From positions 6,595-70,594 of the forward strand of contig CAWIRO010000006.1 of NCBI GenBank assembly GCA_963838565.1: a stretch of 64,000 nt of DNA, written 5' to 3'. This DNA comes from an uncultured Alphaproteobacteria bacterium. GTDB taxonomy: Bacteria; Pseudomonadota; Alphaproteobacteria; Rhizobiales; Rhizobiaceae. Below the pieces are notes generated by a model that was not told the origin of the DNA, did no database searches, and saw only the letters and a list, made by a program, of their open reading frames with translations. Shown here one piece after another: positions 16,178-64,000 of the stretch (position 1 is its first letter; each line of letters starts with the position of its first letter). The position numbers and the translations under genes were made by a program.

Positions 16178-16193
16178 CGAAAAGAGGACGACC

Positions 16194-45614: not shown

Positions 45615-46180
45615 TCAAATCATCAGCCGCGCAGCCCGCCCCTGCTTGCGCTCGGCATCATTGTAGTAGCTTGCCGCCTGGGCGACGGATTTGTGCAGCG
45701 ACTGTTGCATCGCCGCCGGCAGCGGAATGCCGCGATTGGCGGCCTCGGTCAGATAGCCGGAGCGCAGGCCATGGGCGGAAAACAGCGCCGGATCGAGGCC
45801 GGCCTGGGTGCAGCGCTTCTTCAGCATCAGGTTGACCGATTGCGGCGTCAGCGCCCGGCGGTCGACATTGCCCCATTGATCGATGCGCCGGAACACCGGC
45901 CCGGCATCGATCTTCGCCTCGGCCAGCCAGTGTTTGAGGGCGGGGACCGGCCGGCCGATCAGCACGACCTGGGCGCCGTCATCGCCGCTGGTGGTCTTGG
46001 TGCGGCCGAGACGAATGGTCAGGCAGGGCAGGAGAGGGGAGTTCTTGTCCAAGGGATCGGCGCGCACCGGTTCCTCCTCGACCAGATCCTCGATGCGCAG
46101 CCCGCCAGCTCCGACCGGCGGCGGCCGCCGGAGGCAAACGCCGTCAGCAGCAACGCCCGATCGCGAAGACCAGGCTTCAT
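45615..46180 (-). pseudogene. C-terminal (catalytic) remnant of a tyrosine recombinase
   Basis: LRDRALLLTAFASGGRRRSE, RTKT, AHGLRSGY, HKS..YY; the N-terminal half is missing and the 5' break abuts the GntR promoter. Confidence 0.82.
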
Positions 46181-46210: not shown

Positions 46211-46224
46211 AATTGTTGACAATT
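46211..46224. promoter_or_regulatory. GntR/FadR operator 1
   Basis: AATTGT-TG-ACAATT palindrome upstream of gntR-mmgE-tct. Confidence 0.75.
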
Positions 46225-46265
46225 AACATTCTGCATACTACACATCGGTAAAGGGAGCGCTGACA

Positions 46266-46938
46266 ATGACGTTGAATGCAATCGACATTCTTCGATCGAG
46301 CTCTCTGCCGATGTTGCTCGAGCAGGAAATCGAGCGTGTCATTCTCGGTGGCGGATTTGCGCCGGGAGATCACGTCAACGAGAAGGACCTGGCGCTGCGC
46401 TTCGGCATCAGCCGCGGTCCGGTGCGCGAGGCGTTGCGCTCGCTGGATTCGTCCGGCCTTGTCGAGCAGGTGCCAAATCGCGGCTTCTTCGTTCGCCGGC
46501 TGACTGCGGCTCAGGCCTGCGATGTCTACGATGTCCGTGCCGTGCTTTTCGGCCTTGCCGGAAAGCTGCTGGCCGAGCGTATCACCGATGAGGGAATCGC
46601 GCAGCTCAGGACCTTCGTCGCCGACATGGATGCGGCCGTCGCCGCCGACGATTTCGAAGCCTACGTCAAAATCAACTTTGCCTTTCACGAATTCATCGTC
46701 GTCAGCGCCGGCAATCCGACGCTGGCCCAGCAATATCTGACGTTGGTCAAGCAGCTCCGGCTCTACCGCGCCCGCAGCCTGATGCTCGGCGATTCGATGC
46801 ATGCGTCCCATCAGCGAGCATCACGCCATGGTCGATGCCGTCGCGGCGCGCGATCCGGCGAGGGCGCTTCTCGCCCATGCGCGGCATGTCGAGGCGGCCA
46901 AAGAGCGGCTGATGGCAACGGCCCCGAACCTCAAATAG
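46266..46938 (+). CDS. GntR/FCD regulator; frameshift near 46812
   Basis: NEKDLALRFGISRGPVREAL..PNRGFFV, NFAFH, AGN; corrected end EHHAMVDAV..*. Confidence 0.88.
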
Positions 46939-46959
46939 AAAACCAGGAGACTTGATCGC

Positions 46960-48404
46960 GTGAATACCATATCCGACATCACGGCCCAGGCCATACGTTT
47001 CATCGAGCGCACGACCTATGCTGATTTGCCGGATGAAGCCCTCGTCATCGGCCGCCGCTGCATGGTCGATACGGTCGGGCTCTATCTCGCCGGCAGCCAG
47101 GAGGCGTCGGTGCGGATCCTGATCGAAGATGCGCTTGCTCAAGGCGGACGCGGCGATGCGCCGCTGCCGGGTGCCGGCGCCAAGAAGGTGCCGGCGGCGC
47201 TTGCCGGCCGCGTCTGGGGCACCGCAGGACACGCCCATGACTGGGACGACACCCAGGTTTCCCACGATCCGGACCATGTCTACGGGCTGCTGACGCATCC
47301 CTCCGTTCCGCCGCTGACGGCAGCGCTGATCGTTGCCAGCGAGCTCGGCAATGTCGACGGCCGCGACGTCATGCTCGCCTTCCAGGTCGGGCTTCGAGGT
47401 CGAGTGCAAGATTTCCGAATGGATGACGCCGCGCCACTATCGCCGCGGCCATCATACCAGCGGCACGGTCGGCACCTTCGGCGCCGCCGCCGCCGCCGCC
47501 AAGCTGCTCGGCCTGAAGGGCGACAAGCTCGCTCATGCGCTCGGATTGGCCGCGAGCTTCGCCGCCGGCATCCGCGTCAATTTCGGCACGATGACGAAGC
47601 CGCTGCATGTCGGCCGCGCCTGCGAAAACGGCATCACCGCCGCCTTGCTGGCCTGCGCGCGGTTTCGAGGCCGATCCGGCAGCGCTCGACGGAACCTGGG
47701 GCTTCTTCTCCGTGATGGGCGAAGGTTTCGATGCCGACAAGGCAAAGGCAGGCTTCGGTGCGCCGCTGACGATCGTCACGCCCGGCGTCAGCGTCAAGCC
47801 TTATCCGTCCGGCATTCTCACGCATCAATCGATGGATGCGATGCTGAAGCTGGTGCTCGACCACGATCTCAAGGCCGAAGAGGTCGAGCGTATCCGTTTC
47901 TTCGCCGGCAAGAACATCATCGAGCCGATCCGCTATCCGATTGCGCGCAACCATCTGCAGGCGAAGTTCTCGATGCCGGCGCTGCTCGCGATGATCGTGC
48001 TGTGCCGCCGCGCCAGCCATCACGAATTCGAGGACGCCTTCGTCGCCGGAGAGGCGATGCAGGATCTGCAGGCGCGCACCGACGTCATCAACGATCTCGA
48101 GATCGATGCTCTCGGCTACGACAAGATCCGCTCGCGCATCGAGGTCCTCACCAAGGACGGCCGGACGCTGGTGCAATGGGCGGACGAGCGTTATCGCGGC
48201 GGACCGTCCAATCCGATCAGCGACGACGAGCTCGACGGCAAGTTCCGCATGTGCGCCGAAGGCGTCATCGATGCCGGCGCCCAGGACGAGTTGCTGGCGC
48301 TGGTGCGCGGCATCGACACCGGCGCCGATATCGGCCGCCTCGTATCACTGATCAGCGGCGAAGACGCGGCGGGCCATGCGGCGAAGGAGTCTGCCGCGGA
48401 ATAA
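46960..48404 (+). CDS. MmgE/PrpD-family protein 1; frameshifts near 47390 and 47655
   Basis: GHAHDWDDT, THPS, RHY..GHHTS, NFGTMTKPLH, KPYPSG, QAKFSM. Confidence 0.87.
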
Positions 48405-48461
48405 TCAAGACTAGAGGGAACGCCGTTCCGGGAGAAACGGCATTGAAACGGGAGAGAGAGC

Positions 48462-49435
48462 ATGACATTGATGAAATTGATCGGCAAGGCGGCATTCGGA
48501 ATTGCCGCGATCGGCCTTCTGTGCCGGCTAGCATCCGCTCAGGCGGACCCGCTGCCTTACCCGGCTAAGGTTGTGACCCTGGTCACGCATTCGAGCCCGG
48601 GCGGCGGCAGCGACGTGTTCCTGCGCGAGATGACGAAATATCTCGGCAAATACATCGACGCCACCTTCGTCGTCGAGAATGTCCAGGGCGGCAGCGGCGC
48701 CAAGGCGATGGCCCGCGTCGCCTCGGCCGACGCCGACGGCAGCGTCTTCTACGCGACGACGCCGACCTACATCTACACGTCGCTGATGAGCAAGCCGCAG
48801 AACACCTACAAGGACATGGAGCCGCTGGTGAACATCTTCGTCGACAGCGAGGTGATCTACACGCGCACGGACGGGCCGTTCAAGACCCTGCAGGACGTCA
48901 TCGATCATGCCAAGAAGGAGCGTGGCCGCTGGGGCGCCGCCAATCCGGCCTCGCTGGAGCGTCAGGCCGCAGAACAGCTGAAGGCGCGCCGCTGGCGTGA
49001 CGCCGGCCATCGTCACCCATGAGGGCGGCGGCGACATGATGCTGAACGTGCTCAACGGCACGCTCGATATCGGCATCGGCGAAATCCAGGAGGTGCGCTC
49101 GCAGCTCGATGCCGGCAAGATCACCCTGCTTGCCACCTTCAATCCGGAGCGTATCGCCGACAAAGCCGGATGTCCCGACGGTCAAGGAACTGGGCTTCGA
49201 CGTCACGCTCGTGAAGTTCCGCGGCCTTGCCGGCCCGAAGGGCATTCCGGACGAGACGGCCGCGATCTGGGACGAGGCTGTGAAGAACCTCCTCGCCGAT
49301 CCCGACTACAAGAAGGCCTACACCGCCGAGGTGCTGGTGCCGCAGTTCATCGGGCACAAGGACTATCCTGCCTTCGTCAACAATTTCGCGACCACGACGG
49401 AAGAGTTCCTGAAGTCGACCGGCGCCATCAAGTAA
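48462..49435 (+). CDS. tctC: Tripartite tricarboxylate transporter substrate-binding protein; frameshifts near 48985 and 49165
   Basis: YPAKVVTLV..SPGGGSD, VENVQGGSG, GGG, PDVPTVKELG, FRGLAGPKG. Confidence 0.85.
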
Positions 49436-49443
49436 CAGGCATC

Positions 49444-49463
49444 CGGGCCGGTTCGCCGGCCCG
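49444..49463 (+). terminator. Hairpin after tctC
   Basis: CGGGCCGG-TTCG-CCGGCCCG. Confidence 0.55.
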
Positions 49464-49490
49464 AACGCTTTCTTACCTGAGGGCTATCTC

Positions 49491-49970
49491 ATGAACAAAG
49501 ATCTTCTTAGCGGCGTAGCGCTGCTTGCGATCGCCGGCACTTACTACACCTGGTCCACACAGATCGCCGACAGCACCTTGTCGGACGAGGTTGGTGCCGG
49601 CGGTCTGCCGCAGGTCCTGTCCGTCATCCTCGCGATTCTGGCCGTCGTCCTCATCGCCCGAGCGCTGCTGGTTGCCCGGTTGCGGACCGCGGCAGCGGCG
49701 GGCTCCGACGACGAAGACGACAACGCCCGTCTGCCGCGCGCCGTCGGCTTCCTGCTGTTCGGCGCGGCCTATGTCTTCCTGCTGCCCTTCGTCGGCTACA
49801 TCATCGCCACCGCGCTGATGATCGGGGCGATCGCTCTCTACGAAGGCGCGCCGCGAACCTGGGTGGTCGCCGCAGCGGCGATCGGCGGCGGCGTCTTCTA
49901 TTGGGCGGTGTTCGTCAAATTGCTCGGTGTCCACCAGCCGATGGGCTCGATTTTTCAAGGATTGTTCTGA
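49491..49970 (+). CDS. tctB: TTT small membrane subunit
   Basis: 4-TM protein with VGAGGLP and LPFVGYIIAT, between tctC and tctA. Confidence 0.85.
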   Translation: MNKDLLSGVALLAIAGTYYTWSTQIADSTLSDEVGAGGLPQVLSVILAILAVVLIARALLVARLRTAAAAGSDDEDDNARLPRAVGFLLFGAAYVFLLPFVGYIIATALMIGAIALYEGAPRTWVVAAAAIGGGVFYWAVFVKLLGVHQPMGSIFQGLF

Positions 49971-51469
49971 TGACCACGCTCTGGGACATCATCCATCTTC
50001 TGACGGAAACGCCGCTGGTTTTCGTCGCCATCGCCGGCCTCACCTGGGGCATTCTCGGCGGCGCGCTGCCGGGCATCTCGGCCTCGATCACCATGGCGCT
50101 CGTGCTGCCGTTCACCTATACGATGGACCCGGCGCAGGCGATCGCGCTGCTGGCCTGCGTCTATATCGGCGCCGAATATGGCGGCTCGATCCCGGCGATC
50201 CTGATCCGGACGCCCGGCACCAATTCGTCCGCCGCCACCGTCATCGACGGCTATGAGCTGAACCGGCAGGGCCGCGCCGGCGAGGCGCTCGGCATCTCGC
50301 TGATGTCCGGCGTCGTCGGCAGCCTGTTCGGCCTCGCCATGCTCATCCTGCTGACCGAGCCGCTGTCCTGGCTGGCGCTCGCCTTCACGCCGGCCTCCTA
50401 TTTCGGTCTCGGCATTCTCGGCCTCAGCGTCATCGCCTCGATGAGCGGCGGATCGCTGATCAAGGGGCTCTCGGCCGCGGCGATCGTCGGCCTGATGATT
50501 TCGACCGTCGGCACGGACCCGATCTCCGGCGTCACGCGCTTCACCTTCGATATTCCCGATTTGCTCGGCGGCATCGAGCCGGTCCTCGTCATGGTCGGCC
50601 TGTTCGCGCTGACCGAACTGATGAGCCAGTCGGGCTCGACCACCGTGACGAAGCTGAACGCCAGCATCAAGATCAGGCTGCCGAGCCTGTCGCTGATGAA
50701 CAAGCTCAAGCGCTCGCAGTTCATCGGCTGCCTGCTCGGCCTGTTCGAGGGGCTGACGCCGGGCGGCGGCGGCTCGATCGCCGCCTTCATGTCCTATAAC
50801 GAGGCGAAGCGCTGGTCGAAGACGCCGGAGAACTTCGGCAAGGGCTCGGAAGAGGGCGTCGCCGCGCCGGAGGCCGCCAACAACACCGTGGCGAGCACCG
50901 CGCTCATTCCGCTGCTGAGCTTCGGCATTCCGAGCTCGAATTCCACGGCCGTGCTGCTCGGCGGGCTGCTGATGCACGGCCTGCTGCCCGGCCCGCGTCT
51001 GTTCGAACAGAGCGCCCAGGTGATCGACAGCATCTATGTCGGCTCCTTCATCGCCATCATCGCCCAGATCGGCATCGGCATCATCATCCTGCCGGCCTGC
51101 ATCTGGCTGGTGAACCGACCGCGGCACTATCGCTCCGGCTTCATCTTCGCGCTGATCCTGTCGGGCATCTATACGCTCAACAACAGCCTGTTCGACCTCG
51201 GCCTTGCGCTGGCGCTCGGCCTGGTCGGCTATCTGATGCGGCTGACGCGCTTCCCGGTTCTGCCGATGATCCTCGGCGTCGTCCTCGGCCACATGGTCGA
51301 ATCGAGCTATCGGCGTTCGCTGGTGCTGTCGGGCGGCGATCACATGATCTTCCTGCAGGATCCGATCGCCGTCTGCCTGTTGTCCCTCGCCCTTATCTTC
51401 GTCGTCTTCTCGCTCGGCCGCGAACTTCGCGATGCCCGCAAGAGCAAATTAGAGGAAGCCCATTCATGA
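49970..51469 (+). CDS. tctA: TTT large membrane subunit
   Basis: GALPGISA, EYGGSIPAILIRTPGT, APEAANN, GIP, PGP. Confidence 0.92.
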   Translation: MTTLWDIIHLLTETPLVFVAIAGLTWGILGGALPGISASITMALVLPFTYTMDPAQAIALLACVYIGAEYGGSIPAILIRTPGTNSSAATVIDGYELNRQGRAGEALGISLMSGVVGSLFGLAMLILLTEPLSWLALAFTPASYFGLGILGLSVIASMSGGSLIKGLSAAAIVGLMISTVGTDPISGVTRFTFDIPDLLGGIEPVLVMVGLFALTELMSQSGSTTVTKLNASIKIRLPSLSLMNKLKRSQFIGCLLGLFEGLTPGGGGSIAAFMSYNEAKRWSKTPENFGKGSEEGVAAPEAANNTVASTALIPLLSFGIPSSNSTAVLLGGLLMHGLLPGPRLFEQSAQVIDSIYVGSFIAIIAQIGIGIIILPACIWLVNRPRHYRSGFIFALILSGIYTLNNSLFDLGLALALGLVGYLMRLTRFPVLPMILGVVLGHMVESSYRRSLVLSGGDHMIFLQDPIAVCLLSLALIFVVFSLGRELRDARKSKLEEAHS

Positions 51470-52840
51470 ATGTAGCCGTTCCGACATCGACGCCCGTGGC
51501 CGCCAGGCTCGCGGCCTTTGCCGCCGAGGCATCGCCCTTCGGCTGCGGCAGCTGCGGTCTGCCGCCGCCTCGTTTTCGACGTCATCGCACTTGCGATCGC
51601 CGCACGCGACACGGACTATGTCCGCGCCGCTCTTCGCAGCGCCGTCGACGAAGGCTCCTGCACGGCCTTCGGTCACAGCACGGGCCTCGGCCTCTACGAC
51701 GCCGCGCTCGTCAACGGAACCGCCGCGCATGGCGAGGACTACGACGATACGTTCGAGGGCGGACCGATCCATGCCGGCGCAGTCATCGTCTCGGCGGTGC
51801 TTGCGATCGCCGAAAAGCGCGGTCTCGACGGCCGCGCCGTCATGCGCGGCATCGCCGTCGGCACGGAGCTGATGTGCCGCATGAGCCTGGTCGCGCCGCA
51901 GGCGACCCACAAGGCAAGCTTTCACCCGACCGCCATCTTCGGCGCGCCGGCTGCGGCTGCCGCCGTCGGCGCGGCACTCGGCCTCGACGCCGCAACGATC
52001 GCACGGGCGCTCGGCATTTCCGGAAGCCTTGCCTCCGGCATCATCGAATATCTGGCCGATGGCAGCTCGACAAAGCGTCTGCACGCCGGCGCCGCGGCGC
52101 AGGCCGGATTGCGCGCGGCGCTGCTGGCCGAAGGCGGCTTCACCGGTCCGCTGACGGTATTCGACGGCGTCAACGGCATGTACAAGGCCTTCGCGCCTTC
52201 GAAGGTCCCGGATTTCAGCCGGTTGCTCGACGGTCTTGGCGAGGACTGGATTCTCGAGACCCTCGCCTTCAAGCCCTATGCCTGCGGGACGATGACGCAG
52301 CCGTTCATCGATTGCGCCAAGAAGCTGGCGGCGATCAGGCGTCAAGGCGGAGGACATCGTCTCGATCACCTGCAATGTGGGCGAGGGCACCGTCCACCGG
52401 CTATGGGAGCCGCTTGCTGAAAAACATCGGCCGCCGAACGGCTATGCCGGCAAAGTTCTCGACGCCCTTCTGCATGGCGGTCGGCTTCATCGACGGAGAA
52501 GCGGGCCTCGGCCAGTTCACCGACGAGCGCGTCGATGGATCCTGCGGTCAGGGCGCTGGCGGCAAAGGTCTCCTATGAGATCGATCCGAACGATCCCTAT
52601 CCGCGCAATTTCACCGGCCACCTCAAGGCGGTTTTGAAAGACGGGTCGGTGCGCGAATTCCATCAGCCTCATATGCGCGGCGGCGCCCAGGAGCCGCTGC
52701 CCGATGCCGAACTGCTCGCGAAGTTCGAGGCCAATCTGCGCTTCGGCGGGTTTTCGGCGAGTGCGATCGAGGCTCTGCGTAAGGCGCTCGACCGGATCGC
52801 CGATGGCGGTCGTGTCGATCTCTCGGCGGCAAGAGCGTGA
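51466..52840 (+). CDS. MmgE/PrpD-family protein 2, frameshifted
   Basis: AHGEDYDDT..IHAG, FHPT, EYLADGSSTKRLHAG, KPYACGT, AKFSTP. Confidence 0.85.
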
Positions 52841-52852
52841 GCGGCGCGATGC

Positions 52853-53614
52853 ATGGAAAATCATGAACTGAAAGGCCGCGTGGCCCTGGTCACCGGCGCC
52901 TCGCGCAATATCGGCCGGGCCATTGCGCTGTCGCTCGCGGAAGCGGGCTGCCGCAATCGCCATCATCGCCCGGTCGGATCGGGCGGCGGCGCGAGGCGGT
53001 GGCGCGCGAAGTGGAGGCGAAAGGCAGCCCGGCGACCGTGCTGCTCGGCGACGTGTCGCAGGAGGAGGATGCCGCGCGGCTGGTCAGCCAGACGGTCGAG
53101 GCATTCGGTGGCCTCGATATTCTCGTCAACAATGCCGCCATCCGCCGCGAGACACCGGTCGAGGCGCTTTCCTTTGCCGACTGGCGCGAGGTGATGGGCG
53201 TCACCCTTGACGGTGCGTTCCTCATGAGCCGTGCGGCCATCCCGCATCTGCTGACAAGCGAGCCAGGGGACGATCGTCAATATCGGCGGCCTCACCGCCT
53301 ACACGGGCGCACTGCATCGCGCCCATGTCATCGCGGCAAAGGCCGGGCTCGACGGGCTGACCAAGGCGCTGGCCCATGAGCTCAGCCCGCGCGGCGTGAC
53401 CGTCAACCTCGTCTCCCCGGGGATGATCGACACCAACCGCCAGCATACGCCGACAGGCGCCGAACCGACCCACCACCAGACGACGCGCACGCTGGTCGGG
53501 CGTCGCGGCACGCCGGAGGAGGTGGCCGCGGCCGTCCGCTATCTCGCCAGCGCCAATGCCCGCTTCACGACCGGACAGACCCTGCATGTCAACGGCGGGG
53601 CATTCCTGCCTTGA
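52853..53614 (+). CDS. Short-chain dehydrogenase/reductase, frameshifted
   Basis: TGASRNIG, VNNAA, H-x-x-x-A-K region in place of YxxxK (HVIAAK), VSPG, VNGG. Confidence 0.82.
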
Positions 53615-53723
53615 CGACCCAAGGGAGACTCGGTCAGAAGGCGGCTCATGGCGGCCGCCCGGCCGTTCTCCGAAACGATGAACGCGTCCTGCGTCCAGAT
53701 TCCTTAGCGACGGACATTGCCCG

Positions 53724-54284
53724 ATGTCTCTTTCCGAACCTTCCCTCTCGCCTCCGCAGCCAAGCCTTCCCGCTCTGTTTCTCCTTTGCTTCAAGATTGG
53801 CGTTCTGAGTTTCGGCGGCGGCCTTTCGGGATGGATCTATCAGGCATTCGTGCTGCACAAACAGTGGATCGACGAGGAGGATTTCTCGAGCAGCCTGGCG
53901 ATTTCGCAGATGCTGCCCGGAGCCAATGTCGTCAATCTGGTGATCTGCATCGGCGAGCAATTGCGCGGACCGTCGGGCGCGGCCGTCTGTGTCGCTGGTT
54001 TTCTCGTCGGTCCGTTTTTCGCGGTCATCGGGCTTTACCAACTGTTCGATTTGTTTGCCGGCTTTGCACTGCTGCCCGTCATTTCCGATGGCGTGGCCTT
54101 TGCGGCGATCGGCCTGCTGCTCCTGATGTGCGTTCATGGCGTTCGGCGCGCCATGCGGTTTCCGCCGTCGGTGGTCATCATTGCCGTGACCGCCCTTTTG
54201 GTCGGCGTGCTGCAATGGCCGCTGATACCGGTGGCGCTTGCCATCGCACCGATCAGCGTCGCCATGGCCTGGCGGAGAAGCTGA
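53724..54284 (+). CDS. Short-chain CHR (chromate/oxyanion) transporter subunit 1
   Basis: IGVLSFGGG, WIDEEDF, SQMLPG. Confidence 0.85.
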   Translation: MSLSEPSLSPPQPSLPALFLLCFKIGVLSFGGGLSGWIYQAFVLHKQWIDEEDFSSSLAISQMLPGANVVNLVICIGEQLRGPSGAAVCVAGFLVGPFFAVIGLYQLFDLFAGFALLPVISDGVAFAAIGLLLLMCVHGVRRAMRFPPSVVIIAVTALLVGVLQWPLIPVALAIAPISVAMAWRRS

Positions 54285-54285
54285 C

Positions 54286-54839
54286 ATGCGCGACGATCTG
54301 CTCATCGGCCTGGCTCTGGTTTTCATCCCGTTTTCACTGACCTCGATCGGCGGCGGCGGCGCCATCATCGCCGGCATCCAGAACGAGACGGTCAATGTGC
54401 ACGCCTGGATCAGCGCATCCGATTTCATCCATCTCTTCGCGGTTTCACGGGCGGCCCCCGGGCCGGGGATGATGCTGGCAACGGTCATCGGCTGGAAGGT
54501 CGCGGGCTGGCTCGGAGCGCTGGTGGCATCGCTTGGCGCTTTTCCTGCCGTCGTCGCTGCTTTGCTACACGGTGTTCCGCTTGACGAACACGCATCGGCA
54601 GAAGAAGTGGCATCGCGCCATGCGCGAGGGATTGGCGCCCGTCGGCGTCGGCCTGATCATTGCCGGCGTGATCTCGCTGTTCCGCGTGGCCGATGGTGGC
54701 GTGCTCGCGCGTGGTGATCGCCTGCCTTACCGGCGCGATCCTCTACTGGATCCCGAAGTTCCCGGTATTGATCGTGCTGATCCTCGGCGGCCTGGGTGCC
54801 GCCGCAGCATCGGCCTCGCCCAATCTCCTGGGCTTTTAG
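54286..54839 (+). CDS. Short-chain CHR transporter subunit 2, frameshifted
   Basis: SIGGG, AAPGP, GWKVAG, FLPSS, GLAPV. Confidence 0.82.
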
Positions 54840-55857
54840 GCGTCGAGCCGTTTGAACTGGACGAGCCTGCTTGCCAGCCTGATGGCGTTCTCGAATGCGC
54901 GCCGGTATCGGCAATGCCCTTGCCGACGATGTCGAAGGCCGTGCCATGCGCCGGCGTGGTGAAGATGGTGTCGAGCCCGGCGGTCACCGTGACGCCGCGG
55001 TTGAAGCCGCGCATCTTCGTCGCGATCTGGCCCTGGTCGTGATACATGGCAAGCACGCCGTCATAGTCGCCGGCGAAGGCCTTCAGGTAGACGGTGTCCG
55101 ACGGGAACGGCCCCTCGCAATCGAAGCCCTTGGCAGCCATGGCTTCGACGGCGGGGCGGATGATCTCGATCTCCTCCATGCCGAACAGGCCGTTTTCGCC
55201 GGCATGCGGATTGAGGGCAGCGACCGCAAGCCGAGGCGAAACGATGCCGGCCTTGCGCATCATCGTCACGGCACAGTTCGATGGCGTTCTCGATCGCCGG
55301 CACGGTCGATCTGATCGACCGCCTGCCGTAGCGACACATGCGAGGTGACGCGCGACATCCATTGATTGTCGAGCACGTTCATCTCGCTGAAATAGCCGCG
55401 ATGGCCGAGCAGATGGGCGAACATCTTGTGCTCGTCCGGAAAATGCCAGCCGCCGTCATACATCGCCCGCTTGTTGAGCGGCGCGAAGGAAACGGCGTCG
55501 ACCTCGCCGGCCTTGGCGAAATCGATCGCCCGCGACAGGGTTTCGCCGGTGACGCGGCCGGACTCGGCGCTGCCGATGCCCGGCGGATAGAGCGACGGAT
55601 CGGTGTTGTTCGAGGTCGATGATCGGCACGGTCTCGTCCGACCAGTCGATGGCCGCAGGGCTGTGCATAGCGCCGGTATTCGCAAGGCGCACGCCGGCCT
55701 GCCGCATGCCGAGTTCGAGCACCCTGGCATCGCCGACCACGACGATGCGGGCAGTCTCCCTCATCCGGCCGTCGTGCAGAATGCGGGCCGTCTGTTCCGG
55801 TCCGATGCCGGTGCAATCGCCCGGGGTGAGGGCGATGATGGGAAGCTCTCGGCTCAT
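54836..55857 (-). CDS. PdxA-family decarboxylating dehydrogenase (non-canonical), frameshifted
   Basis: TPGDCTGIGPE, APLNK, TSHVSL, LNPHAGE, MYHDQGQ, TTPAHGTAFDI; DEH in place of the canonical GHTE. Confidence 0.82.
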
Positions 55858-56968
55858 GATTGCCTCGACGTCTGAGGGGTGGGGAGGGATGTCGCCAGAA
55901 GCGCTTCGGCGATGGCCTTGCCGCAGGTCGACGGTGTCGGCGCTGCCGCCGAGATCGCCGGTCCTCGAGGCGGGATCGGCGAGCACTGTCTCGATCGCCG
56001 AGACGATGGCTGCCGCCGCCTCGGGATGGCCGAGATGGTCGAGCATCATCGCGCCGGCCCAGATCTGGCCGATCGGATTGGCAATTCCCTTGCCGGCAAT
56101 GTCGGGCGCGGAACCGTGCACCGGCTCGAACAGCGACGGGAAATTGCGCTCCGGATTGATGTTGCCCGAGGGCGCGATGCCGATCGTGCCGGTGCAGGCG
56201 GGACCGAGATCGGAGAGGATGTCGCCGAAAAGGTTGGAGGCGACGACGACGTCGAAGCGATCCGGATTGAGCACGAAATGCGCGCAGAGAATGTCGATAT
56301 GGTATTTGTCCGCAGCGCACATCCGGATAGGCTTTCGCCATCTCCTCGACGCGCTCGTCCCAATAGGGCATGGTGATCGAAATGCCGTTCGACTTGGTCG
56401 CCGAGGTCAGGTGTTTCTTGCCCCGGCTCTGGGCCAGATCGAAGGCGTAGCGCAGGATGCGGTCGACGCCGATGCGGCTCATCACGGTTTCCTGCACGAC
56501 GATCTCGCGCTCGGTGCCGGGATACATCTTGCCGCCGATCGAGGAATATTCGCCCTCGGTGTTTTCGCGCACGACGAAGAAATCGATATCGCCGGGCTTG
56601 CGGCCGGCGAGCGGCGATGGAACGCCCGGCATCAGGCGCACCGGCCGCAGGTTGACATACTGGTCGAACTCGCGGCGGAACTGCAGGAGCGAGCCCCAGA
56701 GCGAGATATGGTCCGGCACGGTTTCCGGCCAGCCGACGGCGCCGAAGAAGATCGCGTCGTGGCCGCCGATCTGCGCCTTCCAGTCCTCCGGCATCATCCG
56801 GCCATGGGCGGCGTAGTAGTCGCAGGAGGCGAAGTCGAAATGGTCGAAGGCGAGGTCGATCTCGAATTGGCCGGCGGCCGCTTCGAGGACGCGCAGACCC
56901 TCGGGCACCACTTCCTTGCCGATGCCGTCGCCGGGGATGACCGCGATCTTCAGACGATTGGACGGCAT
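55854..56968 (-). CDS. Tartrate dehydrogenase/D-malate dehydrogenase (decarboxylating)-like, copy B; frameshifted
   Basis: PGDGIGKEV, VPDHISLWG, RENTEGEY, TKSNG, FGDILSD, EPVHGSAPDIAG. Confidence 0.88.
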
Positions 56969-56980
56969 GTCGGTCTCCCT

Positions 56981-58062
56981 TCATTCGTTGTCGCCGAGGA
57001 TGGCGGCGACAGACGGCATCCGTCACCATGTCGGTCGTGGCGGTGCCCTTGAGGTCCGGCGTGTGCAGCGACGGATCGGCGGTGACGCGCTCGATGGCGC
57101 GCATCAGCCGCGCCGCCGCCGCCGGTTCGCCGAGATGCTCCAGCATCATCACCGCCGACCAGAAGGTGCCGACCGGATTGGCGATGCCCTTGCCGGTGAT
57201 GTCGAAGGCCGAACCGTGGATCGGCTCGAACATCGAGGGAAACCGGCGCTCCGGATTGAGGTTGGCCGTCGGCGCGATGCCGATCGAGCCCGCCAGCGCA
57301 GCGGCAAGGTCGGAGAGGATGTCGGCATGCAGGTTGGTCGCGACGATCGTGTCGAGCGATTGCGGATTGCAGCGTCATGCGCACGGTCATGGCGTCGACC
57401 AGCATCTTGTCCCAGGTGACATCGGGAAAATCGGCGGCGACCTCGCGGGCGATCTCGTCCCACAGCACCATGCCGTGGCGCTGGGCGTTCGACTTGGTGA
57501 CGACGGTCAGAAACTTGCGCGGCCGCGATTGCGCCAGCTCGAAGGCGAAGCGCATGATGCGGCTGACGCCGGCGCGGGTGAAGATCGAGACTTCGGTCGC
57601 CACTTCCTCCGGCAGGCCGCGATGCGAGCGGCCGCCCTGGCCGGCATATTCGCCTTCGGAATTCTCGCGGACGATGACCCAGTCGAGATCGTCGGCCGTA
57701 ACGCCCGGCAGCGGGCTCCGGATGCCGGGCAGGATGCGGGTCGGGCGGACATTGGCATATTGGTCGAAGGGCTGGCAGATGGCGAGGCGCAGGCCCCAGA
57801 GCGTCAGATGATCGGGCACATCGGGCGCGCCGACCGCACCGAAATAGATCGCATCGAAGGCTTTCAGGCGCTCGATGCCGCCCTCGGGCATCAGCACGCC
57901 ATTGGCCTTGTAGTAATCCGAGCCCCACGGGAAATTCTCGACCTTCAGCGCGAACTGAGCCGTCGCGGGCAGCGCAGGCCTTCAAGGACCGCGAAGCCCG
58001 GCAGCGATGACTTCCTTGCCGATTCCATCACCGGGAATGGCTGCGATGTCATATGTCTTCAT
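56981..58062 (-). CDS. Tartrate dehydrogenase-like, copy A; frameshifted
   Basis: MKTYDIAAIPGDGIG, VPDHLTLWG, RENSEGEY, TKSNAQ, EPIHGSAFDI. Confidence 0.87.
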
Positions 58063-58119
58063 TGATTCAACTCCCCGCACTAACCGTGCATTTGCTATTC
58101 GGATGCCGAATTTTCGCGT

Positions 58120-58148
58120 AATTGTCAATTATAAATTGTTGACAATTT
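58120..58148. promoter_or_regulatory. GntR/FadR operator 2 (plus half-site)
   Basis: AAATTGTTGACAATTT (58133-58148) preceded by AATTGTCAATT, in the divergent promoter between the tartrate-DH operon and the dehalogenase-like gene. Confidence 0.75.
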
Positions 58149-58209
58149 ACCAAAATAGAGCGTGACCTGATCTAAGATTTCCGTTTTATCGACGTTAGAC
58201 AAGAGGAGA

Positions 58210-59173
58210 ATGCAATGTCGTTGCCCACCGAATAGGCCGATATCTGAAATGCCTTCGTTCTTCGAAGAGAAGGGCAAGCTGATGCATGGGTTCCGATACG
58301 AGCGCGTGCAGACCGCCGGTGCCGAGATCAACGTGGCGATCGGCGGCGAAGGGCCGCCGCTGCTTCTGCTGCACGGCAATCCGCTGACCCATGTGAGCTG
58401 GCACAAGATCGCGCCTGCGCTTGCCAGGAGCTTCACCATCGTCGCGCCCGACCTGCGCGGCTATGGCGACAGTTCGAAGCCTGACGGCGGCGAGGATCAT
58501 TCCGGCTACTCGTTCCGGGCGATGGGCGAGGACAATGCGGCCGTCATGTCGCATTTCGGCTTCGAGCGTTTCCAGGTCGCCGGCCATGACCGCGGCGCCC
58601 GCGTTGCCTTCCGCATGGCGCTCGATTTCCCCGAGCGGATCGAACGCGTTGGCGGCCCTCGACATCGTGCCCACGCACCATGCGCTGACCAATGTGACGC
58701 TCGGCTGGGGGCTCGAAGCCTATCACTGGTTCTTCATGGCGCAGAAGGCGCCGTTCCCGGAAAAGCTGCTGACGGCCGACCTCAGCTATTACATCGACTA
58801 CAAGCTCAACAAGAAAGGCGTCGGCCTCGAGATCTTCAGCCCGGAAGCGATGGCGGAATACAAGCGCTGCACGACGCCGGAGCAGATCCATGCGGTCTGC
58901 GAGGATTATCGCGCCACCGTCAGCGTCGATCTGGCCATGGATACGGCCGACTACGGCAAACGGACGATCGATTGCCCGGTGCTGGTCCTCTGGGGCTCCA
59001 ACAGCCATTGCGGCCGTCATTTCGCGCCGCTCGAGGCCTGGAAGCCCTGGGCACCTGATCTGCAAGGCTGGGCCGTGCCGACCGGGCATTATCCCGCCGA
59101 ACAGCGGCCGGATCTCATCTACGATGCGTTCTGGAAGTTCTTCAACGGACAGGATCCGATGCCGGCCGGTTGA
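58210..59173 (+). CDS. Fluoroacetate/haloacetate dehalogenase-like alpha/beta hydrolase; frameshift near 58650
   Basis: LLHG, DLRGYG, GHD-R-GA-R, ALDIVPT, YHWFF, EDYRA, TGHY; exact start uncertain. Confidence 0.83.
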
Positions 59174-59234
59174 TGAACGTCGCGTCTTCCGTCAGCCGCG
59201 GGCGGCGGACGGAAGATCGCTTCGGCAGGACGCG

Positions 59235-60305
59235 TCAGCCGAGCGCCGCAATGATGCCCTGCGTCATTCCGGCGGTGCCAGCGGTTCCCTTGATGTCGCG
59301 CGTGCGGGTCGCGGGGTTTGAAAGCGCCGTGGCGATCGCCTTCTGCATGATCGATGCCGCCTCGACGGCCTGCGGGATCTTGCGGTTGTGGCCCAGCCAC
59401 TCGATCATCATGCGGGCGGATTCGATCATCGCAAAGGGATTGGCGATGCCCTTGCCGGCGATATCGGGCGCCGAGCCGTGGGTCGCCTGGGCCATCGCCA
59501 GATTGCCTTCGCCGATGCACAGGCCCGGCGCCATGCCGAGGCCGCCGACGAGACCGGCCGCTTCGTCCGTCAGGATATCGCCGAACATGTTGGTGGTGAC
59601 GATGACGTCGAAGCTCTGCGGATCGCGGATAAGGCGCATCGCCATGGTATCGACGATGACCTCGTCGACGGTGACATCGGGGAATTCCTTGGCGACGCGG
59701 TGGCATTCCTCGACGAACATGCCGCAGCCGAGCTTGAAAACGGTGTTCTTGTGCACCAGCGTCAGCCGCTTCTTGCGCTGCTGCGCAATCTCGAAGGCCG
59801 CGCGCGCGACGCGCGACGAGCCGAGCCGGGTGATGACGCGCACCGAGATCGTCACGTCCTCCGTCGGGCGGAATTCGCCGGAGCCGGCCACGACGTTGCG
59901 GTCCGGCTGGAAGCCCTCGTTGTTTTCGCGCACGATCACCAGGTCGATGCCTTCGTGGATCGCGCCGAGGCCGGGAAAGGATTTCGTCGGCCGCACATTG
60001 GCAAAGAGGTTGAAGCCCTTGCGCATGATCGGGTGCGGATTGATGGCGCCCGGCACCTTCGGATAGGCCTGATGGCCGATCGGGCCGAGGATGAAGCCGT
60101 CCATCTTGGCGAGCGTTTCCATCGTGCCCTCCGGAAAGGTCGAGCCGATTGTGTCGAGCGCCGTCCTGCCGATCGGCATCGGCCGCCAGTCGATCTTGAG
60201 GCCGGTCTTGGCGGCGGCGGCGCGGGTGACCTCGACGGCGGCCGGCACGATCTCGTGGCCGATGTCGTCGCCGTTCAGGATCCCGATCACGAGATGGTGT
60301 GTCAT
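59235..60305 (-). CDS. Isocitrate/isopropylmalate dehydrogenase-family protein
   Basis: GDDIGHE, RENNEG, HKNTV, NMFGDILTD, HGSAPDIAGKGIANP. Confidence 0.88.
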   Translation of the reverse strand: MTHHLVIGILNGDDIGHEIVPAAVEVTRAAAAKTGLKIDWRPMPIGRTALDTIGSTFPEGTMETLAKMDGFILGPIGHQAYPKVPGAINPHPIMRKGFNLFANVRPTKSFPGLGAIHEGIDLVIVRENNEGFQPDRNVVAGSGEFRPTEDVTISVRVITRLGSSRVARAAFEIAQQRKKRLTLVHKNTVFKLGCGMFVEECHRVAKEFPDVTVDEVIVDTMAMRLIRDPQSFDVIVTTNMFGDILTDEAAGLVGGLGMAPGLCIGEGNLAMAQATHGSAPDIAGKGIANPFAMIESARMMIEWLGHNRKIPQAVEAASIMQKAIATALSNPATRTRDIKGTAGTAGMTQGIIAALG

Positions 60306-60317
60306 AGAGCAGTCCTT

Positions 60318-61422
60318 TCAGTCAGAGGAGGCGCCGAGGCGGCGCGAAAGGGTTTCGAATATCCGAAGCGTGAACAGGATCGTCGTCATCACGACGGCGA
60401 TGCGGGTGATCTGGAAGGCGGTGACGGTGGTGGCGTCGAGATGCATCGCCGTGGCGGTCAGCACCATTTCGGTGACGCCCGCCGGCGCGACGGCAAGCAG
60501 GCTGGTCACGAAGGAGAGGCCGGTGGCGTGCGGAAAGCAGCCAGGCGATGCCGGTGGCGACCGCGAGCAGGAAGGTCGTGGTGATCGAGTGCCGAGATCG
60601 TCACCCGCGACAGGCGGCCGAGCAGCGATCGCCGGAAACGGCAGCCGAGCCAGATGCCGATGACGATCTGCGCGATGGTGAGAACGATCGACGGAATGGC
60701 GAAGGGGCCAAAGCCGAACCCTGAAACGATGCCCGCGATGATCGCCGGCACGAGCAGCCAGGTGTTGGGCAGCTTCAGCCGCCGCGCCAGAAACGCCGCA
60801 ACGGCAGCGACGACAAAGAGGGCGATCAGCGGCACGGCGTCGGCGCGGAACGGGATCGCCACCGGCTGAATGCCTCCATCCTCGCCGAATATCGTCACAA
60901 GGAACGGCACGATCGTGACGATCGATGTGACCCGGATGAGATGAACCACGGCGACCGTGTCGCTGTCGGCGTTCTTCTGGTGCGCGACGACCGCCATCTC
61001 GGCAAGGCCGGCGGCGGCGGTCGCGAAGAATGCGGTCCTGCCGTCGATGCCGGCGAGCATTCGGATCATCAGGGCCGCGACCATGGTCGCGACGATGATC
61101 AGCACTGTCGACAGCAACATGAACGGCAGCAGCGTTGCAGTGGCGACGAACACCGCCGGCACGAAACGCGAGCCCGATCGCCAGGCCGACGGCGACCTGG
61201 CCGAGTTCCCGTCCATACGGCAAGCGGCGCAATGGGAGCGCCCGAAATCGCCGCCATGCCACAGGCCAGCAGCGGACCGAGCAGATAGGGAAGGGGCATC
61301 GCGATGCCCTTGGCGACGAAAGCGCCGGCGATGCCGATCAGGAGTGCCAGACCGATCCGCAAAACGGTGCGGCCGAAGACAGGCGTGCCGCCGCCAGTGC
61401 CTGCTAGTTCCGAATTCGGCAT
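60318..61422 (-). CDS. AbrB-family duplicated membrane protein, frameshifted
   Basis: MPLPYLLGP, AAGLAEM, HLIRV, APAGVTEM, FQITR (two repeats). Confidence 0.8.
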
Positions 61423-61438
61423 CGCGATGTCGATCGCG

Positions 61439-62857
61439 TCAGGCGACGGAGATCAGGCGGGCCGCCAACTCGTCGAGGGACTTCAGCGTCTCGAGCCTGC
61501 GCACCAGTTCGACGATCTCGTTTGCCTTGCCGTTGGCCATGCCGGCGAATTCTGCATTCTCGCGGAATTTGTCGGCGACCTCGTCGTAGCTCATCGGGAA
61601 TGCCGGGCTGCCCTTGCCGAAATCGGCGCGGCCGGAGATCTTGCGGCCGTCCTTGAGCTCGATGTCGATCAGCGTCGTCATCAGGTGGTAGCCTGCTGCT
61701 TCCGCCTCGTCGTCGATGACGAAGTCGACCTTCTCGATCATCGCCTTGCACGTCTTCGCGCTCGACGGCGGCGTCGGTGAATTCGTTGAGGCCGGCACGG
61801 CCTTCGAGCAGCAGGATCGCCATGCAGAATTCCATCGAGAACTTTGCCTGCAGTTCGTCCTTGGGACGATGATGGATCAGCGCGTTCGGCATGTTGGAAT
61901 TGGTGCCGACGCGGACATGCTTCACGTCTTCGGCGCGGATGCCGTTCTCCTTGATCAGCCGCAGCATTTCCGTCATGCCGGGATGCGTCAGCGAGCCCGA
62001 CGGATGCGGCTTGATGGAAATGCCGGGATTGGCGAAGGTCCACGGCGCGCCGAGCTTGCCGAAGATGGCATTCTGGTCGTAGCCGCCGCCCGCAGCGGCG
62101 AAGAAACCGCGCGGCGCCTCGAGGATGCGCGGCGTGGCTGTCCAGCCGTAGGAGGCAAACTGGGCGGCAGCGACGCCGCTTTCCGACGAACGCCCGGCAT
62201 GGAAGGGTTTCGTCATCGTGCCGAAGTTTTCACGCAGGCCGGCGGACTGGCTGCCGGCGATCGACAGCGCCCGCAGCGTGGTGTCCACGTCGAGACCCAT
62301 CAGCCGAGCGCTGGCGGCGGCCGCAGCGAACGTCCCGCAGGTGGCGGTCGCATGGAAGCCGGTCTGGTAGTGGCGCGGCGCGATCGCCTCGGCGATCTTG
62401 CACTCGACTTCAACGCCCAGATGATAGGCCAGCATGAAATCCTTGCCCGAGGATTTGAGCAGTTCCGCCATCGCGAATGCCGCCGGCAGGGCCGGAGCCG
62501 TCGGATGCGTCAGCAGACCATAGACGCGGTCCTTGGCGACGGCGAGCTGCGTGTCGTCGTAATCGTCGGCGTGGATGCCGACACCGTTGGCGAATGCAGC
62601 AAAGCGAGGCGCAACCTTGCGGCCGCCGCCGATGACGGTCGCAGTGCCGTCGGCAAGACCGAGATCGTCGAGATGGCGACGGACCAGTTCGCCGCTCTTG
62701 GCAACCGAACCGGAAAGAGCCAGACCGAAGCCGTCAAGTATCGATTTCTTGCCGAGTTCCACGACTTCTGCCGAAAGTGTCCTCGAACTGTCGTATCAAC
62801 CACGAACTCGGCAACATATTTCGTCAGCGCCACATCAACCGCTTTGTTCTGGTCCAT
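61439..62857 (-). CDS. MmgE/PrpD-family protein 3, frameshifted
   Basis: IHADDYDDT, THPT, RHY..GFHAT, NFGTMTKPFH, KPHPSG, QAKFSM, KGSP. Confidence 0.87.
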
Positions 62858-62918
62858 CCCAAATCCTCCTGTCGCAATGTCTAGTGAGTAGGTTCTCAGC
62901 GGCGACAGTGCTTTGAGA

Positions 62919-62938
62919 ATTGTTAATTGTCAACAGTT
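62919..62938. promoter_or_regulatory. GntR/FadR operator 3
   Basis: AATTGTCAACAGTT (62925-62938); the reverse complement AAACTGTTGACAATTAACAATTC closely matches AAATTGTTGACAATTAACATTC at ~46210. Confidence 0.72.
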
Positions 62939-63025
62939 TTTCGTTTACAAAATGAGGCGATGTCGATGACCAGACGGACGATGTCAGCGGGAATGACTTA
63001 GAGACGCGGCGGTGCGGCATGCCCG

Positions 63026-63712
63026 TCAGGGACCGGCCTGGCGGGTCCGAACAATGCCGTTGAGGATATGGGTGCGGGCGGCAATCAGGCTGCGAACGGG
63101 GTCACGAGCCTCGAGCGCATCGACGATCGCCCGATGCTCCTGGTTGGAGATATGCAGCACATCGTGGCTCGAAAGCGCGCGGTAGCGCTGGATATGCAGC
63201 TCGCGGACGAAACTCTGGTAGATCAGTTCCAGGCGATTGTTTCCCGCCATGTGCGCGATCTGCTTATGGAATTCGAGGTTGACGGGATAATAGATATGCA
63301 CATCGCCAAGCTCGACGATTTCGTCCATGCGCTGCAACAGCGCCCGCAGAATGGCGATCTGCGCATCCGTGATCCGCTCGGCCAGCATCATCGCCATGCA
63401 GCCGAAGACGCCGGCGCGCGCTTCTGAAAGGTCCTGGGCCTCGTCGTTGGTCAAGGCGCGAATGAAGAAGCCGCGGTTCGGGATGATCTCGATGAGACCC
63501 ATCGCGGCCAGCGCGCTGCAGGCTTCGCGGATCGGCCCGCGGCTCACGCCCAGGCGCTGCGACAGGCCGTTTTCGTTCACACGCTCATTCGGCTTCAGTT
63601 CGCCATCGATGATCATCCGCTCGATTTCGGCCTGCACCACATTCGCGAGCGAACGAGTGCGAAGGAAATCGATCGCGGACAGATTGGGCGGTAGGTTCGT
63701 TAAGTCCGACAT
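63026..63712 (-). CDS. GntR/FCD regulator, paralog of 46266
   Basis: NENGLSQRLGVSRGPIREA..PNRGFFI, NLEFH, AGN, EHRAIV. Confidence 0.9.
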   Translation of the reverse strand: MSDLTNLPPNLSAIDFLRTRSLANVVQAEIERMIIDGELKPNERVNENGLSQRLGVSRGPIREACSALAAMGLIEIIPNRGFFIRALTNDEAQDLSEARAGVFGCMAMMLAERITDAQIAILRALLQRMDEIVELGDVHIYYPVNLEFHKQIAHMAGNNRLELIYQSFVRELHIQRYRALSSHDVLHISNQEHRAIVDALEARDPVRSLIAARTHILNGIVRTRQAGP

Positions 63713-63863: not shown

Positions 63864-64000
63864 TCAACCCCGCGCGTTCATCTGTGAACCGCCGAGAACA
63901 GGAACCCGGTTGGCGACAAAAACAACGGCAAAGGATGCAGCAAGCAGAATAATGCCGAGAACACATATTGCCCCGAGATCGCCGCTCTCGTTGAGATCGT
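63864..64000 (-). CDS. 3' end of an FbpB/ThiP-type ABC permease (gene starts outside window)
   Basis: Read manually: DLNESGDLGAICVLGIILLAASFAVVFVANRVPVLGGSQMNARG*. Confidence 0.55.
   Translation of the reverse strand, partial: DLNESGDLGAICVLGIILLAASFAVVFVANRVPVLGGSQMNARG

Follow-up and report, generated by a model that had tools for sequence, protein, structure and literature searches.

A Predicted Regulon Combining MmgE/PrpD Paralogues with β-Decarboxylating Dehydrogenases in Root-Associated Hyphomicrobiales

Introduction

A 64,000-nucleotide stretch of DNA from an uncultured member of the Rhizobiaceae (assembly GCA_963838565.1, contig CAWIRO010000006.1, here C6, positions 6595–70594; "the window") contains a gene cluster that encodes three MmgE/PrpD proteins, four dehydrogenases of the β-decarboxylating type, a tripartite tricarboxylate transporter (TTT) and a dehalogenase-like hydrolase. 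This cluster is a real accessory regulon of root-associated Hyphomicrobiales, plasmid-borne in the complete records, and very probably a true catabolic system under common control, directed at a hydroxy-polycarboxylate that is as yet unassigned. It is a repressor-controlled catabolic regulon built from known folds and not a new kind of system, and it is distinct from the ttu, prp and iminodisuccinate (IDS) pathways. The best explanation that we can offer overall, and which we advance tentatively, is that the regulon serves the uptake and stereo-convergent conversion of 2,3-substituted succinates.

The MmgE/PrpD family is found in approximately 19% of GTDB species, with only four characterized reactions (PMC12290011). 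All four act on a succinate or C4-dicarboxylate substructure via an enolate, and two of the enzymes are epimerases or isomerases (PMC12290011).

Results and Discussion

A Predicted Operator Shared by Three Transcription Units

Genes were called by Pfam searches on open reading frames (ORFs) and by tblastn with intact orthologues. Both approaches together recovered, in the same order, all the genes listed in the original prediction, which had been made from the sequence alone. The plus strand encodes gntR1, mmgE1, tctC, tctB, tctA, mmgE2, a short-chain dehydrogenase/reductase (SDR) and two proteins of the chromate-transporter family (the Chr pair). A minus-strand block of tdhA, tdhB and a pdxA-like gene is followed by a plus-strand gene for an α/β hydrolase. 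The right part consists of gntR2, mmgE3, an abrB-like gene and a gene for an isocitrate dehydrogenase (IDH)-like enzyme, all on the minus strand. The right boundary first set at 63712 proved too short: the genes of an ATP-binding cassette (ABC) importer (permease, binding protein and ATPase) continue on the minus strand and span window-equivalent positions 63867–67737 by tblastn.

One operator motif had been predicted to precede three transcription units, and this is what we find. The palindrome AATTGTTGACAATT (AATTGT-TG-ACAATT) occurs exactly at 46211–46224, upstream of the gntR1 operon (O1), and again exactly at 58134–58147, between the divergent tdhA and hydrolase genes (O2). A copy with one mismatch lies upstream of mmgE3 at 62925–62938 (O3). 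The chance expectation of this motif within the window is 0.11. The whole 3.85-Mb assembly holds only these three copies at one mismatch or less, all of them at promoters of the cluster. Inverted repeats of the form AATTGT-NN-ACAATT are of the type bound by FCD-type GntR proteins. The cluster encodes two such regulators, GntR1 (46266–46955, plus strand; Pfam GntR and FCD, 82% identity to the orthologue from Rhizobium sp. BG4) and GntR2 (63026–63712, minus strand; Pfam, 97% identity to the orthologue from Phyllobacterium zundukense). The FadR/FCD type is recognized by a winged helix-turn-helix and an FCD domain and by an operator with a TGT-N-ACA core; the Pfam domains and the palindrome at the three promoters make both regulators predicted members of it.

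The same motif, AATTGT-NN-ACAATT, is present at orthologous promoters in loci from Rhizobium, Phyllobacterium, Chelatococcus, Bosea, Ancylobacter and Beijerinckiaceae, and is thus kept in at least five genera. An equivalent of O1 precedes gntR1/mmgE1 in the Rhizobium, Phyllobacterium, Ancylobacter and Bosea loci; O2 has counterparts at the matching place in Phyllobacterium and Rhizobium, and O3 in P. zundukense and Chelatococcus. Phylogenetic footprinting therefore lends good support to the predicted co-regulation of the units. At 67817, 80 bp ahead of the gene for the ABC ATPase, there is a weak site that resembles the operator, so that the predicted FCD-type GntR operator fronts three transcription units and possibly a fourth. 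Immediately before O2, at 58120–58133, stands a degenerate half-palindrome of similar sequence, AATTGTCAATTATA, and in Phyllobacterium two adjacent sites precede mmgE1. Tandem operators may be the rule.

Co-conservation and Mobility

A relative of the cluster is found on plasmid NZ_CP104969 of P. zundukense A18/3m, where the whole layout is intact and lacks only gntR1. This locus also continues with the permease, binding protein and ATPase genes of the importer. A plasmid of Neorhizobium sp. NCHU2750 (pNCHU2750a) shows the same layout with a single tdh gene. Plasmid NZ_CP044126 of Rhizobium sp. BG4 carries a compact form, in which gntR1-mmgE1-tctCBA-mmgE2-SDR-chr-chr is directly followed by the IDH-like gene and gntR2. 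The same families recur in another gene order on plasmid pDY25-A of the marine Rhodobacterales member Pacificitalea manganoxidans (locus L127, 8100–22769). This 14-kb cluster encodes an FCD-type GntR regulator, an IDH-like enzyme, an AbrB-like protein, an SDR, TctCBA and six MmgE/PrpD paralogues. Every complete copy that we found is plasmid-borne.

For a broader view we collected 80 loci with MmgE1 orthologues at 67–89% identity and counted the neighbours in the 54 loci that have at least 6 kb on each side. The genes tctC, tctB, tctA, mmgE2 and the SDR gene each occur near MmgE1 in 43–44 of these 54 loci, and gntR1 in 39. Some Iso_dh-family module is present in 30, an IDH-like orthologue in 17, the chr pair in 14, and mmgE3 and the tandem tdh pair in 13 each. 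The mmgE3 and IDH-like genes of Bosea, Chelatococcus and Microvirga lie together with a gntR2-like gene and the ABC importer; the tandem tdh pair was seen in Rhizobium and Phyllobacterium. When the ORFs of the 80 loci were all clustered without supervision, no further conserved enzyme family such as an aldolase, lyase, CoA-transferase or kinase emerged. A rhodanese gene beside the IDH-like gene in Bosea was not counted, as it is convergent with and overlaps the IDH-like gene. Lack of co-conservation in other genomes had been named as an observation that would speak against the system; the locus counts, the plasmid synteny and the conserved operator show the opposite.

These distributions also bear on the question as to whether the 17.5 kb could be a chance mosaic of unrelated small operons on a mobile island, with no pathway in common. 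The modules do occur separately. The core stands alone in many genomes, the tdh pair together with the pdxA-like and chr genes is confined to Rhizobium and Phyllobacterium among the 54 neighbourhoods, and the core operon is present in only one (Rhizobium sp. BG4) of 18 same-genus genomes searched. The cluster of approximately 21.7 kb is also bracketed by remnants of mobile elements, namely a phage-integrase fragment on its left (45615–45950, minus strand; Pfam) and an insertion sequence (IS6-like) transposase to the right of the ABC genes (window-equivalent position ~68000 on C6). In contrast, a mosaic would not readily account for a single operator that fronts all three units, is otherwise absent from the assembly and is conserved across genera, nor for the finding that Rhodobacterales combine these families again, differently arranged. 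We consider a chance mosaic very improbable. Between the cluster and a neighboring phosphonoacetate-hydrolase operon lies a gene for a LysR regulator (44562–45515, plus strand); the adjacency of that operon to the cluster is not kept in P. zundukense.

Broken Reading Frames

Compared by tblastn with intact orthologues, 13 of the 20 genes are broken and read in two to five frames. The intact ones include tctB, tctA, the first chr gene, the IDH-like gene and gntR2. Elsewhere, gntR1 contains one insertion error at 46814, mmgE1 two (47392 and 47653), tctC two (48984 and 49164), mmgE2 several (51538, 52452, 52533 and 52764), the SDR gene errors near 52949–52992 and at 53261, and the second chr gene two (54533 and 54711). 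At least three such errors affect the pdxA-like gene, two affect tdhB, one tdhA (near 57370), one the hydrolase gene (58647), four the abrB-like gene and two to three mmgE3.

DNA alignment to the intact copies gave approximately 40 single-base insertions versus 5 deletions in total. The left half accounts for 17 insertions and 1 deletion, with roughly 50% of the insertions outside homopolymers, and the right half for 23 insertions and 4 deletions, all 4 of them intergenic. No large deletions were found among the frame breaks in these alignments. Fragmentation extends to the rest of the genome: ORFs average 198 amino acids with approximately 50% coverage, as compared to 336 amino acids and 96% at the locus of a relative. 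The essential gene rpoB is split over two frames at positions 3700–7750 of contig C23; contig C11 ends in an incomplete second copy (134501–135930) that contains a frameshift and two TGA stops. Errors have remained uncorrected in the assembly, and some of its contigs are redundant or mix strains. It comprises 3.85 Mb and is 65% complete, in comparison to 6–7.5 Mb for same-genus relatives.

Because rpoB is split in the same way and nearly all changes are +1 insertions, the frame breaks are errors of sequencing or assembly and not gene decay. An eroded symbiont genome with true pseudogenes was ruled out by the +1 insertions, the split rpoB and the 6–7.5-Mb genomes of the Rhizobium relatives. For the cluster itself, the idea of a decaying, non-functional pseudogene array draws on the shifted frames in 13 of the 20 genes. 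The dominance of +1 insertions, the lack of large deletions, the genome-wide fragmentation with a frameshifted and partly duplicated rpoB, and an amino-acid identity to orthologues that stays at 73–97% by tblastn all argue against it, and we give this idea almost no credence.

MmgE/PrpD Proteins

Family membership was judged by the presence of MmgE_PrpD_N and MmgE_PrpD_C domains over about 450–480 residues. The window copies show MmgE_PrpD_N, and the intact orthologues carry both PF03972 and PF19305. MmgE1 (46960–48400, plus strand) has the N-domain in two frames and is 85–90% identical to intact orthologues of 473–481 residues. MmgE2 (51466–52840, plus strand), delimited by tblastn and an indel map, is 73–74% identical to intact orthologues over their residues 24–452, and MmgE3 (61439–62857, minus strand; Pfam and tblastn) is 95% identical to its P. 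zundukense orthologue. They are encoded by the only MmgE/PrpD genes in the assembly. MmgE1 and MmgE3 share 39% identity and a common 8-residue insertion after the DDTQ motif, and MmgE2 is 30% identical to each of them. The HxxDxDD motif and the His and Lys positions are conserved across the alignment of the paralogues.

The closest solved relative of all three proteins in a PDB search is IDS epimerase, with 140–160 bits (E 9e-44 for MmgE1). None of the MmgE proteins reached an NCBIfam equivalog, and the scores for the PrpD equivalog NF042438 (53 and 33 bits) are far from its cut-off of 950.

In three genomes, relatives of MmgE1 are followed by genes for a flavin mononucleotide (FMN)-dependent 2-hydroxy-acid dehydrogenase and a thiamine pyrophosphate (TPP)-dependent decarboxylase. 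In these loci (L061, L062 and L066, from Methylocella, Terripilifer and Rhizobiales 62-17; ~9900–16300), the genes after the MmgE1-like one (72–73% identity) encode the dehydrogenase, the decarboxylase and a protein of the Amidohydro_2 family. A tctC gene in divergent orientation and a gene for an acyl-CoA synthetase are found close by. The mandelate pathway follows the same logic of racemase, dehydrogenase and decarboxylase as the context of these three MmgE1-like genes. Its racemase belongs to the enolase superfamily, so that the likeness is one of working principle and not of family membership. The gene context of an mmgE gene on a succinamopine Ti plasmid, which we also considered, is unrelated.

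The Dehalogenase-Like Hydrolase and Its Partner

The α/β hydrolase (58222–59161, plus strand; Pfam Abhydrolase_1) matches fluoroacetate dehalogenases and the epoxide hydrolase PA2086 in the PDB (E 1e-75 to 1e-86). Fluoroacetate dehalogenases were recognized by an Asp nucleophile, an Arg-x-x-Arg clamp, a His-Trp/Tyr halide pocket and a catalytic His. The alignment of the hydrolase shows the motifs GHDRGAR, YHWFF, CEDYRA and GH, in which we presume the Asp nucleophile, an Arg-x-x-Arg clamp for the carboxylate and the His-Trp motif to lie. Fluoroacetate dehalogenases (RPA1163, FAc-DEX) and the related epoxide hydrolase PA2086, to which the hydrolase is similar at E 1e-75 to 1e-80, have the nucleophile, clamp and His-Trp motif presumed here; Alr0039, whose PDB entry assigns no function, also has the same motifs, so that they do not fix the substrate.

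The hydrolase of the cluster shows a conserved pairing with tartrate dehydrogenase and TTT genes that is not known from fluoroacetate dehalogenases. In the genomes checked, the hydrolase adjoins a tartrate dehydrogenase gene in at least four different layouts. The two genes are divergent in the window and in loci L097 and L099, and co-directional in L096, L106, L120 and L123. Locus L096, from another family of the order (G027:C4:2229000-2248900, 9267–14987), has a LysR regulator, the hydrolase and tartrate dehydrogenase on one strand, with tctC and tctA divergent from them. This compact module could be a minimal version of the hydrolase–Tdh step. Asp-nucleophile enzymes with a carboxylate clamp convert a 2-halo or 2,3-epoxy acid to a 2-hydroxy acid; with tartrate dehydrogenase as the partner, the obvious products would be D-malate and the tartrates. 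Seven loci from one genus of the same order (L111, L114, L117, L118, L121, L122 and L124) encode a hydrolase of ~50% identity with tctC-family genes on both sides.

Dehydrogenases and Transporters

The products of tdhA (57009–58062, minus strand) and tdhB (55899–56968, minus strand) are Pfam Iso_dh proteins that share 51% identity. Their intact orthologues pass the tartrate dehydrogenase model TIGR02089 (cut-off 470 bits) with 560 bits for TdhA and 572 bits for TdhB, and by tblastn the window copies are 87–93% identical to these orthologues. As judged by these scores, TdhA and TdhB are predicted members of the TtuC-type tartrate dehydrogenase/decarboxylase family.

The next gene of this block (54839–55857, minus strand) encodes a PdxA-family dehydrogenase, found by Pfam in two ORF pieces and by tblastn. 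A third Iso_dh gene in this place was ruled out, as Pfam on the correct ORFs returns a genuine PdxA fold. The orthologue stays below the available equivalogs (261 bits against a cut-off of 290 for TIGR00557, and 244 against 583 for D-threonate-4-phosphate dehydrogenase), and no kinase is conserved in the 80 neighborhoods or at the P. zundukense locus; PdxA/PdxA2 would be expected beside a partner kinase (DUF1537) or pdxJ. The IDH-like enzyme (59235–60305, minus strand; Pfam Iso_dh, E 1e-87) resembles isocitrate, isopropylmalate and homoisocitrate dehydrogenases, and likewise reaches no NCBIfam equivalog. Its best solved relative is the homoisocitrate dehydrogenase of Thermus thermophilus. The position of Arg85 in that enzyme is occupied by Pro, with Asn and His nearby. 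The fifth oxidoreductase is the FabG-like SDR (52853–53614, plus strand; Pfam adh_short, tblastn in three pieces).

The transporter genes tctC (48462–49435; binding protein, tblastn in three frames), tctB (49491–49970) and tctA (49970–51469; E 6e-127, 92% identity to the P. zundukense orthologue), all on the plus strand, match Pfam TctC, TctB and TctA in the order of a TTT. In the PDB, TctC and the PdxA-like protein matched distant relatives only, which gave no ligand clue. The short chromate-transporter-family proteins are encoded at 53724–54284 (Pfam Chromate_transp) and 54286–54840 (Pfam and tblastn), both on the plus strand. The "abrB" gene (60318–61422, minus strand; tblastn in five pieces) is present as predicted and codes for no regulator; its intact orthologue is a duplicated membrane protein of family TIGR03082 (206 bits) and a putative transporter. 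Within the window, the importer is represented by the 3′ end of a fused ABC permease gene (63867–64000, minus strand; tblastn on C6, 86–92% identity to P. zundukense). The best NCBIfam matches of its parts are PhnU2, PhnS2 and PhnT2, all far below cut-off.

Comparison with Known Pathways

We found no published or NCBIfam-curated pathway for this neighborhood, although a negative literature search is no proof, since subscription journals were mostly outside it. A match to an already characterized pathway had been named as grounds for abandoning the idea of a new route; no equivalog and no paper maps onto the neighborhood. The predicted absence of prpB/prpC/acnD, ttuDE and a C–N lyase also stands. 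None of prpB, prpC, acnD, ttuD and ttuE is conserved in the 80 neighborhoods, no prpB above cut-off occurs in the assembly, and Lyase_1, the domain of fumarase/aspartase-family C–N lyases, has no match on C6. Enzymes that cleave C–P or C–S bonds are not conserved in the 80 neighborhoods either.

The nearest relatives among known systems are ttuABCDE of Agrobacterium vitis and RL0995/RL0996 of Rhizobium leguminosarum, which share the TtuC-type tartrate dehydrogenase/decarboxylase with the cluster. These systems are likewise plasmid-borne in plant-associated Rhizobiaceae and relevant to the rhizosphere; on pea, how well R. leguminosarum competes there depends in part on its uptake of tartrate (PMC3333776). 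In contrast to the cluster with its GntR regulators and TTT, the ttu operon has the LysR regulator ttuA, the major facilitator superfamily transporter ttuB, and ttuD/ttuE, which the cluster lacks; the cluster is therefore not a ttu system. It adds three MmgE/PrpD proteins, the SDR, the PdxA-like and IDH-like enzymes, the hydrolase and the ABC importer.

The IDS epimerase of Agrobacterium tumefaciens BY6 (PDB 2HP0/2HP3) shares its fold family with the MmgE proteins of the cluster, was obtained from a bacterium of the same order, and sets a precedent for epimerase action of this family on succinate-type substrates. Assignment to IDS degradation is not warranted, given scores of only 140–160 bits, the lack of a C–N lyase partner and neighbors that are hydroxy-acid dehydrogenases. 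The (S)-(R)-methylsuccinate isomerase is another MmgE/PrpD protein, which inverts a center beside a carboxylate for a stereospecific downstream enzyme (PMC12290011), and we propose the same logic here. The methylsuccinate/itaconate pathway runs via CoA esters, and none of its genes for Ict, Mcd, Ich and Ccl are in the cluster. Finally, the 2-methylcitrate cycle (prpBCDE) also includes an MmgE/PrpD dehydratase. The cluster proteins fall short of the PrpD equivalog and have no prpB, prpC or acnD nearby.

Possible Substrates and Reactions

The original prediction envisaged a funnel that epimerizes or dehydrates several stereoisomers and then decarboxylates them. This remains the most economical reading, helped indirectly by the hydrolase–Tdh pairing and the racemase-like context of MmgE1. 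We favor stereo-convergent catabolism of 2,3-substituted succinates because of the chemistry of characterized MmgE/PrpD enzymes, this pairing, this context and the use of tartrate in the rhizosphere. The most likely substrates would be D-malate and the stereoisomers of tartrate, for which epoxy- or halo-succinate would serve as precursors. That the substrates belong specifically to the tartrate/epoxysuccinate family is possible but somewhat less likely than not, and far less secure than the catabolic system as such.

In this scheme, uptake would proceed through the TTT, and the AbrB-like membrane protein and the PhnS2T2U2-like ABC importer could serve a second module. The hydrolase would open an epoxide or displace a halide beside a carboxylate to give a hydroxy-dicarboxylate. 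The three MmgE/PrpD paralogues may perform enolate chemistry on the succinate skeleton and thereby epimerize or dehydrate the "wrong" stereoisomers. TdhA, TdhB, the PdxA-like and IDH-like enzymes and the SDR could then carry out stereospecific oxidation and decarboxylation to pyruvate, D-glycerate, oxaloacetate or a 2-oxo acid.

Several points weigh against this scheme. In many genomes the core mmgE1-tctCBA-mmgE2-SDR occurs without a nearby tartrate dehydrogenase and is linked to the module of the IDH-like enzyme, mmgE3 and the ABC importer, so that the substrate of the core need not be tartrate. The conserved neighborhoods do not include ttuD or ttuE. The similarity of the IDH-like enzyme to homoisocitrate and isocitrate dehydrogenases hints at a tricarboxylate, and for both GntR regulators and the ABC importer the closest families are associated with phosphonates, even if the matches are below cut-off. 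No definite step falls to the PdxA-like enzyme, the SDR or the Chr pair, and the substrate and every catalytic step are inferred from sequence.

The hint at a tricarboxylate deserves closer consideration. TTT import of isocitrate or methylisocitrate stereoisomers, homocitrate, hydroxycitrate or aconitates could be followed by Fe–S-independent dehydration, hydration or epimerization by MmgE/PrpD proteins, and by formation of a 2-oxo acid by the IDH-like enzyme. Citrate is the classical cargo of TTT systems, and PrpD, the founding member of its family, dehydrates 2-methylcitrate (PMC12290011). The mmgE3 and IDH-like genes are tightly paired in 13 loci. Besides the overall similarity of the IDH-like enzyme, the polar Asn and His residues are found where IDH binds the distal carboxylate. 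The Arg85 of homoisocitrate dehydrogenase that binds this carboxylate is replaced by Pro, however, and the other two Iso_dh enzymes are of the tartrate dehydrogenase type. The Asp-nucleophile hydrolase would have no obvious role, and the MmgE proteins score far below the PrpD equivalog (53 bits against 950). We regard a citrate/isocitrate-family substrate, and with it this route, as unlikely.

The resemblance to phosphonate-associated proteins points in a different direction, to succinates substituted with hetero-atoms. Candidates are chelators like IDS or ethylenediaminedisuccinate (EDDS), and succinates with a phosphono, sulfo or thio group. In this case the MmgE enzymes would be epimerases, and the oxyanion set free would leave the cell through the Chr pair. 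GntR1 and GntR2 score 190–219 bits on the phosphonate-associated model phnR_burk, the ABC parts match PhnS2/T2/U2 best, and among solved structures IDS epimerase stands closest to each of the three MmgE proteins. Transporters of the chromate family carry tetrahedral oxyanions. All of these matches lie below curated cut-offs, however, and the identity to IDS epimerase is ~30%. The absence of Lyase_1 from the contig and of conserved C–P- or C–S-cleaving enzymes from the neighborhoods also speaks against such substrates, which would moreover leave four hydroxy-acid dehydrogenases without a substrate. Hetero-atom-substituted succinates, and the reactions proposed for them, are quite improbable.

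Conclusions

Stereo-convergent catabolism of 2,3-substituted succinates, if correct, may have consequences beyond this cluster. To our knowledge, tartrate epimerase, trans-epoxysuccinate hydrolase, oxaloglycolate reductive decarboxylase and meso-tartrate dehydrogenase are activities that have lacked genes for decades. It is possible, though doubtful, that the regulon constitutes an Fe–S-independent, stereo-convergent route for tartrate-family acids and supplies genes for such orphan activities. If so, tartrate epimerase would be an MmgE/PrpD paralogue and trans-epoxysuccinate hydrolase the dehalogenase-like hydrolase, and oxaloglycolate reductive decarboxylase and meso-tartrate dehydrogenase would be found in a Tdh paralogue, the PdxA-like enzyme or the SDR. 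The MmgE/PrpD family would thereby gain a fifth and perhaps a sixth type of reaction.

The combination of three to six MmgE/PrpD paralogues with four β-decarboxylating dehydrogenases and a dehalogenase-like hydrolase in one conserved cluster raises a question that intact, cultivable sources (P. zundukense A18/3m, Neorhizobium sp. NCHU2750 and Rhizobium sp. BG4) make directly testable. Solving the pathway would give functions to several widespread "family protein" annotations and might give genes to orphan tartrate activities. It also bears on how root-associated bacteria make use of plant and fungal organic acids.

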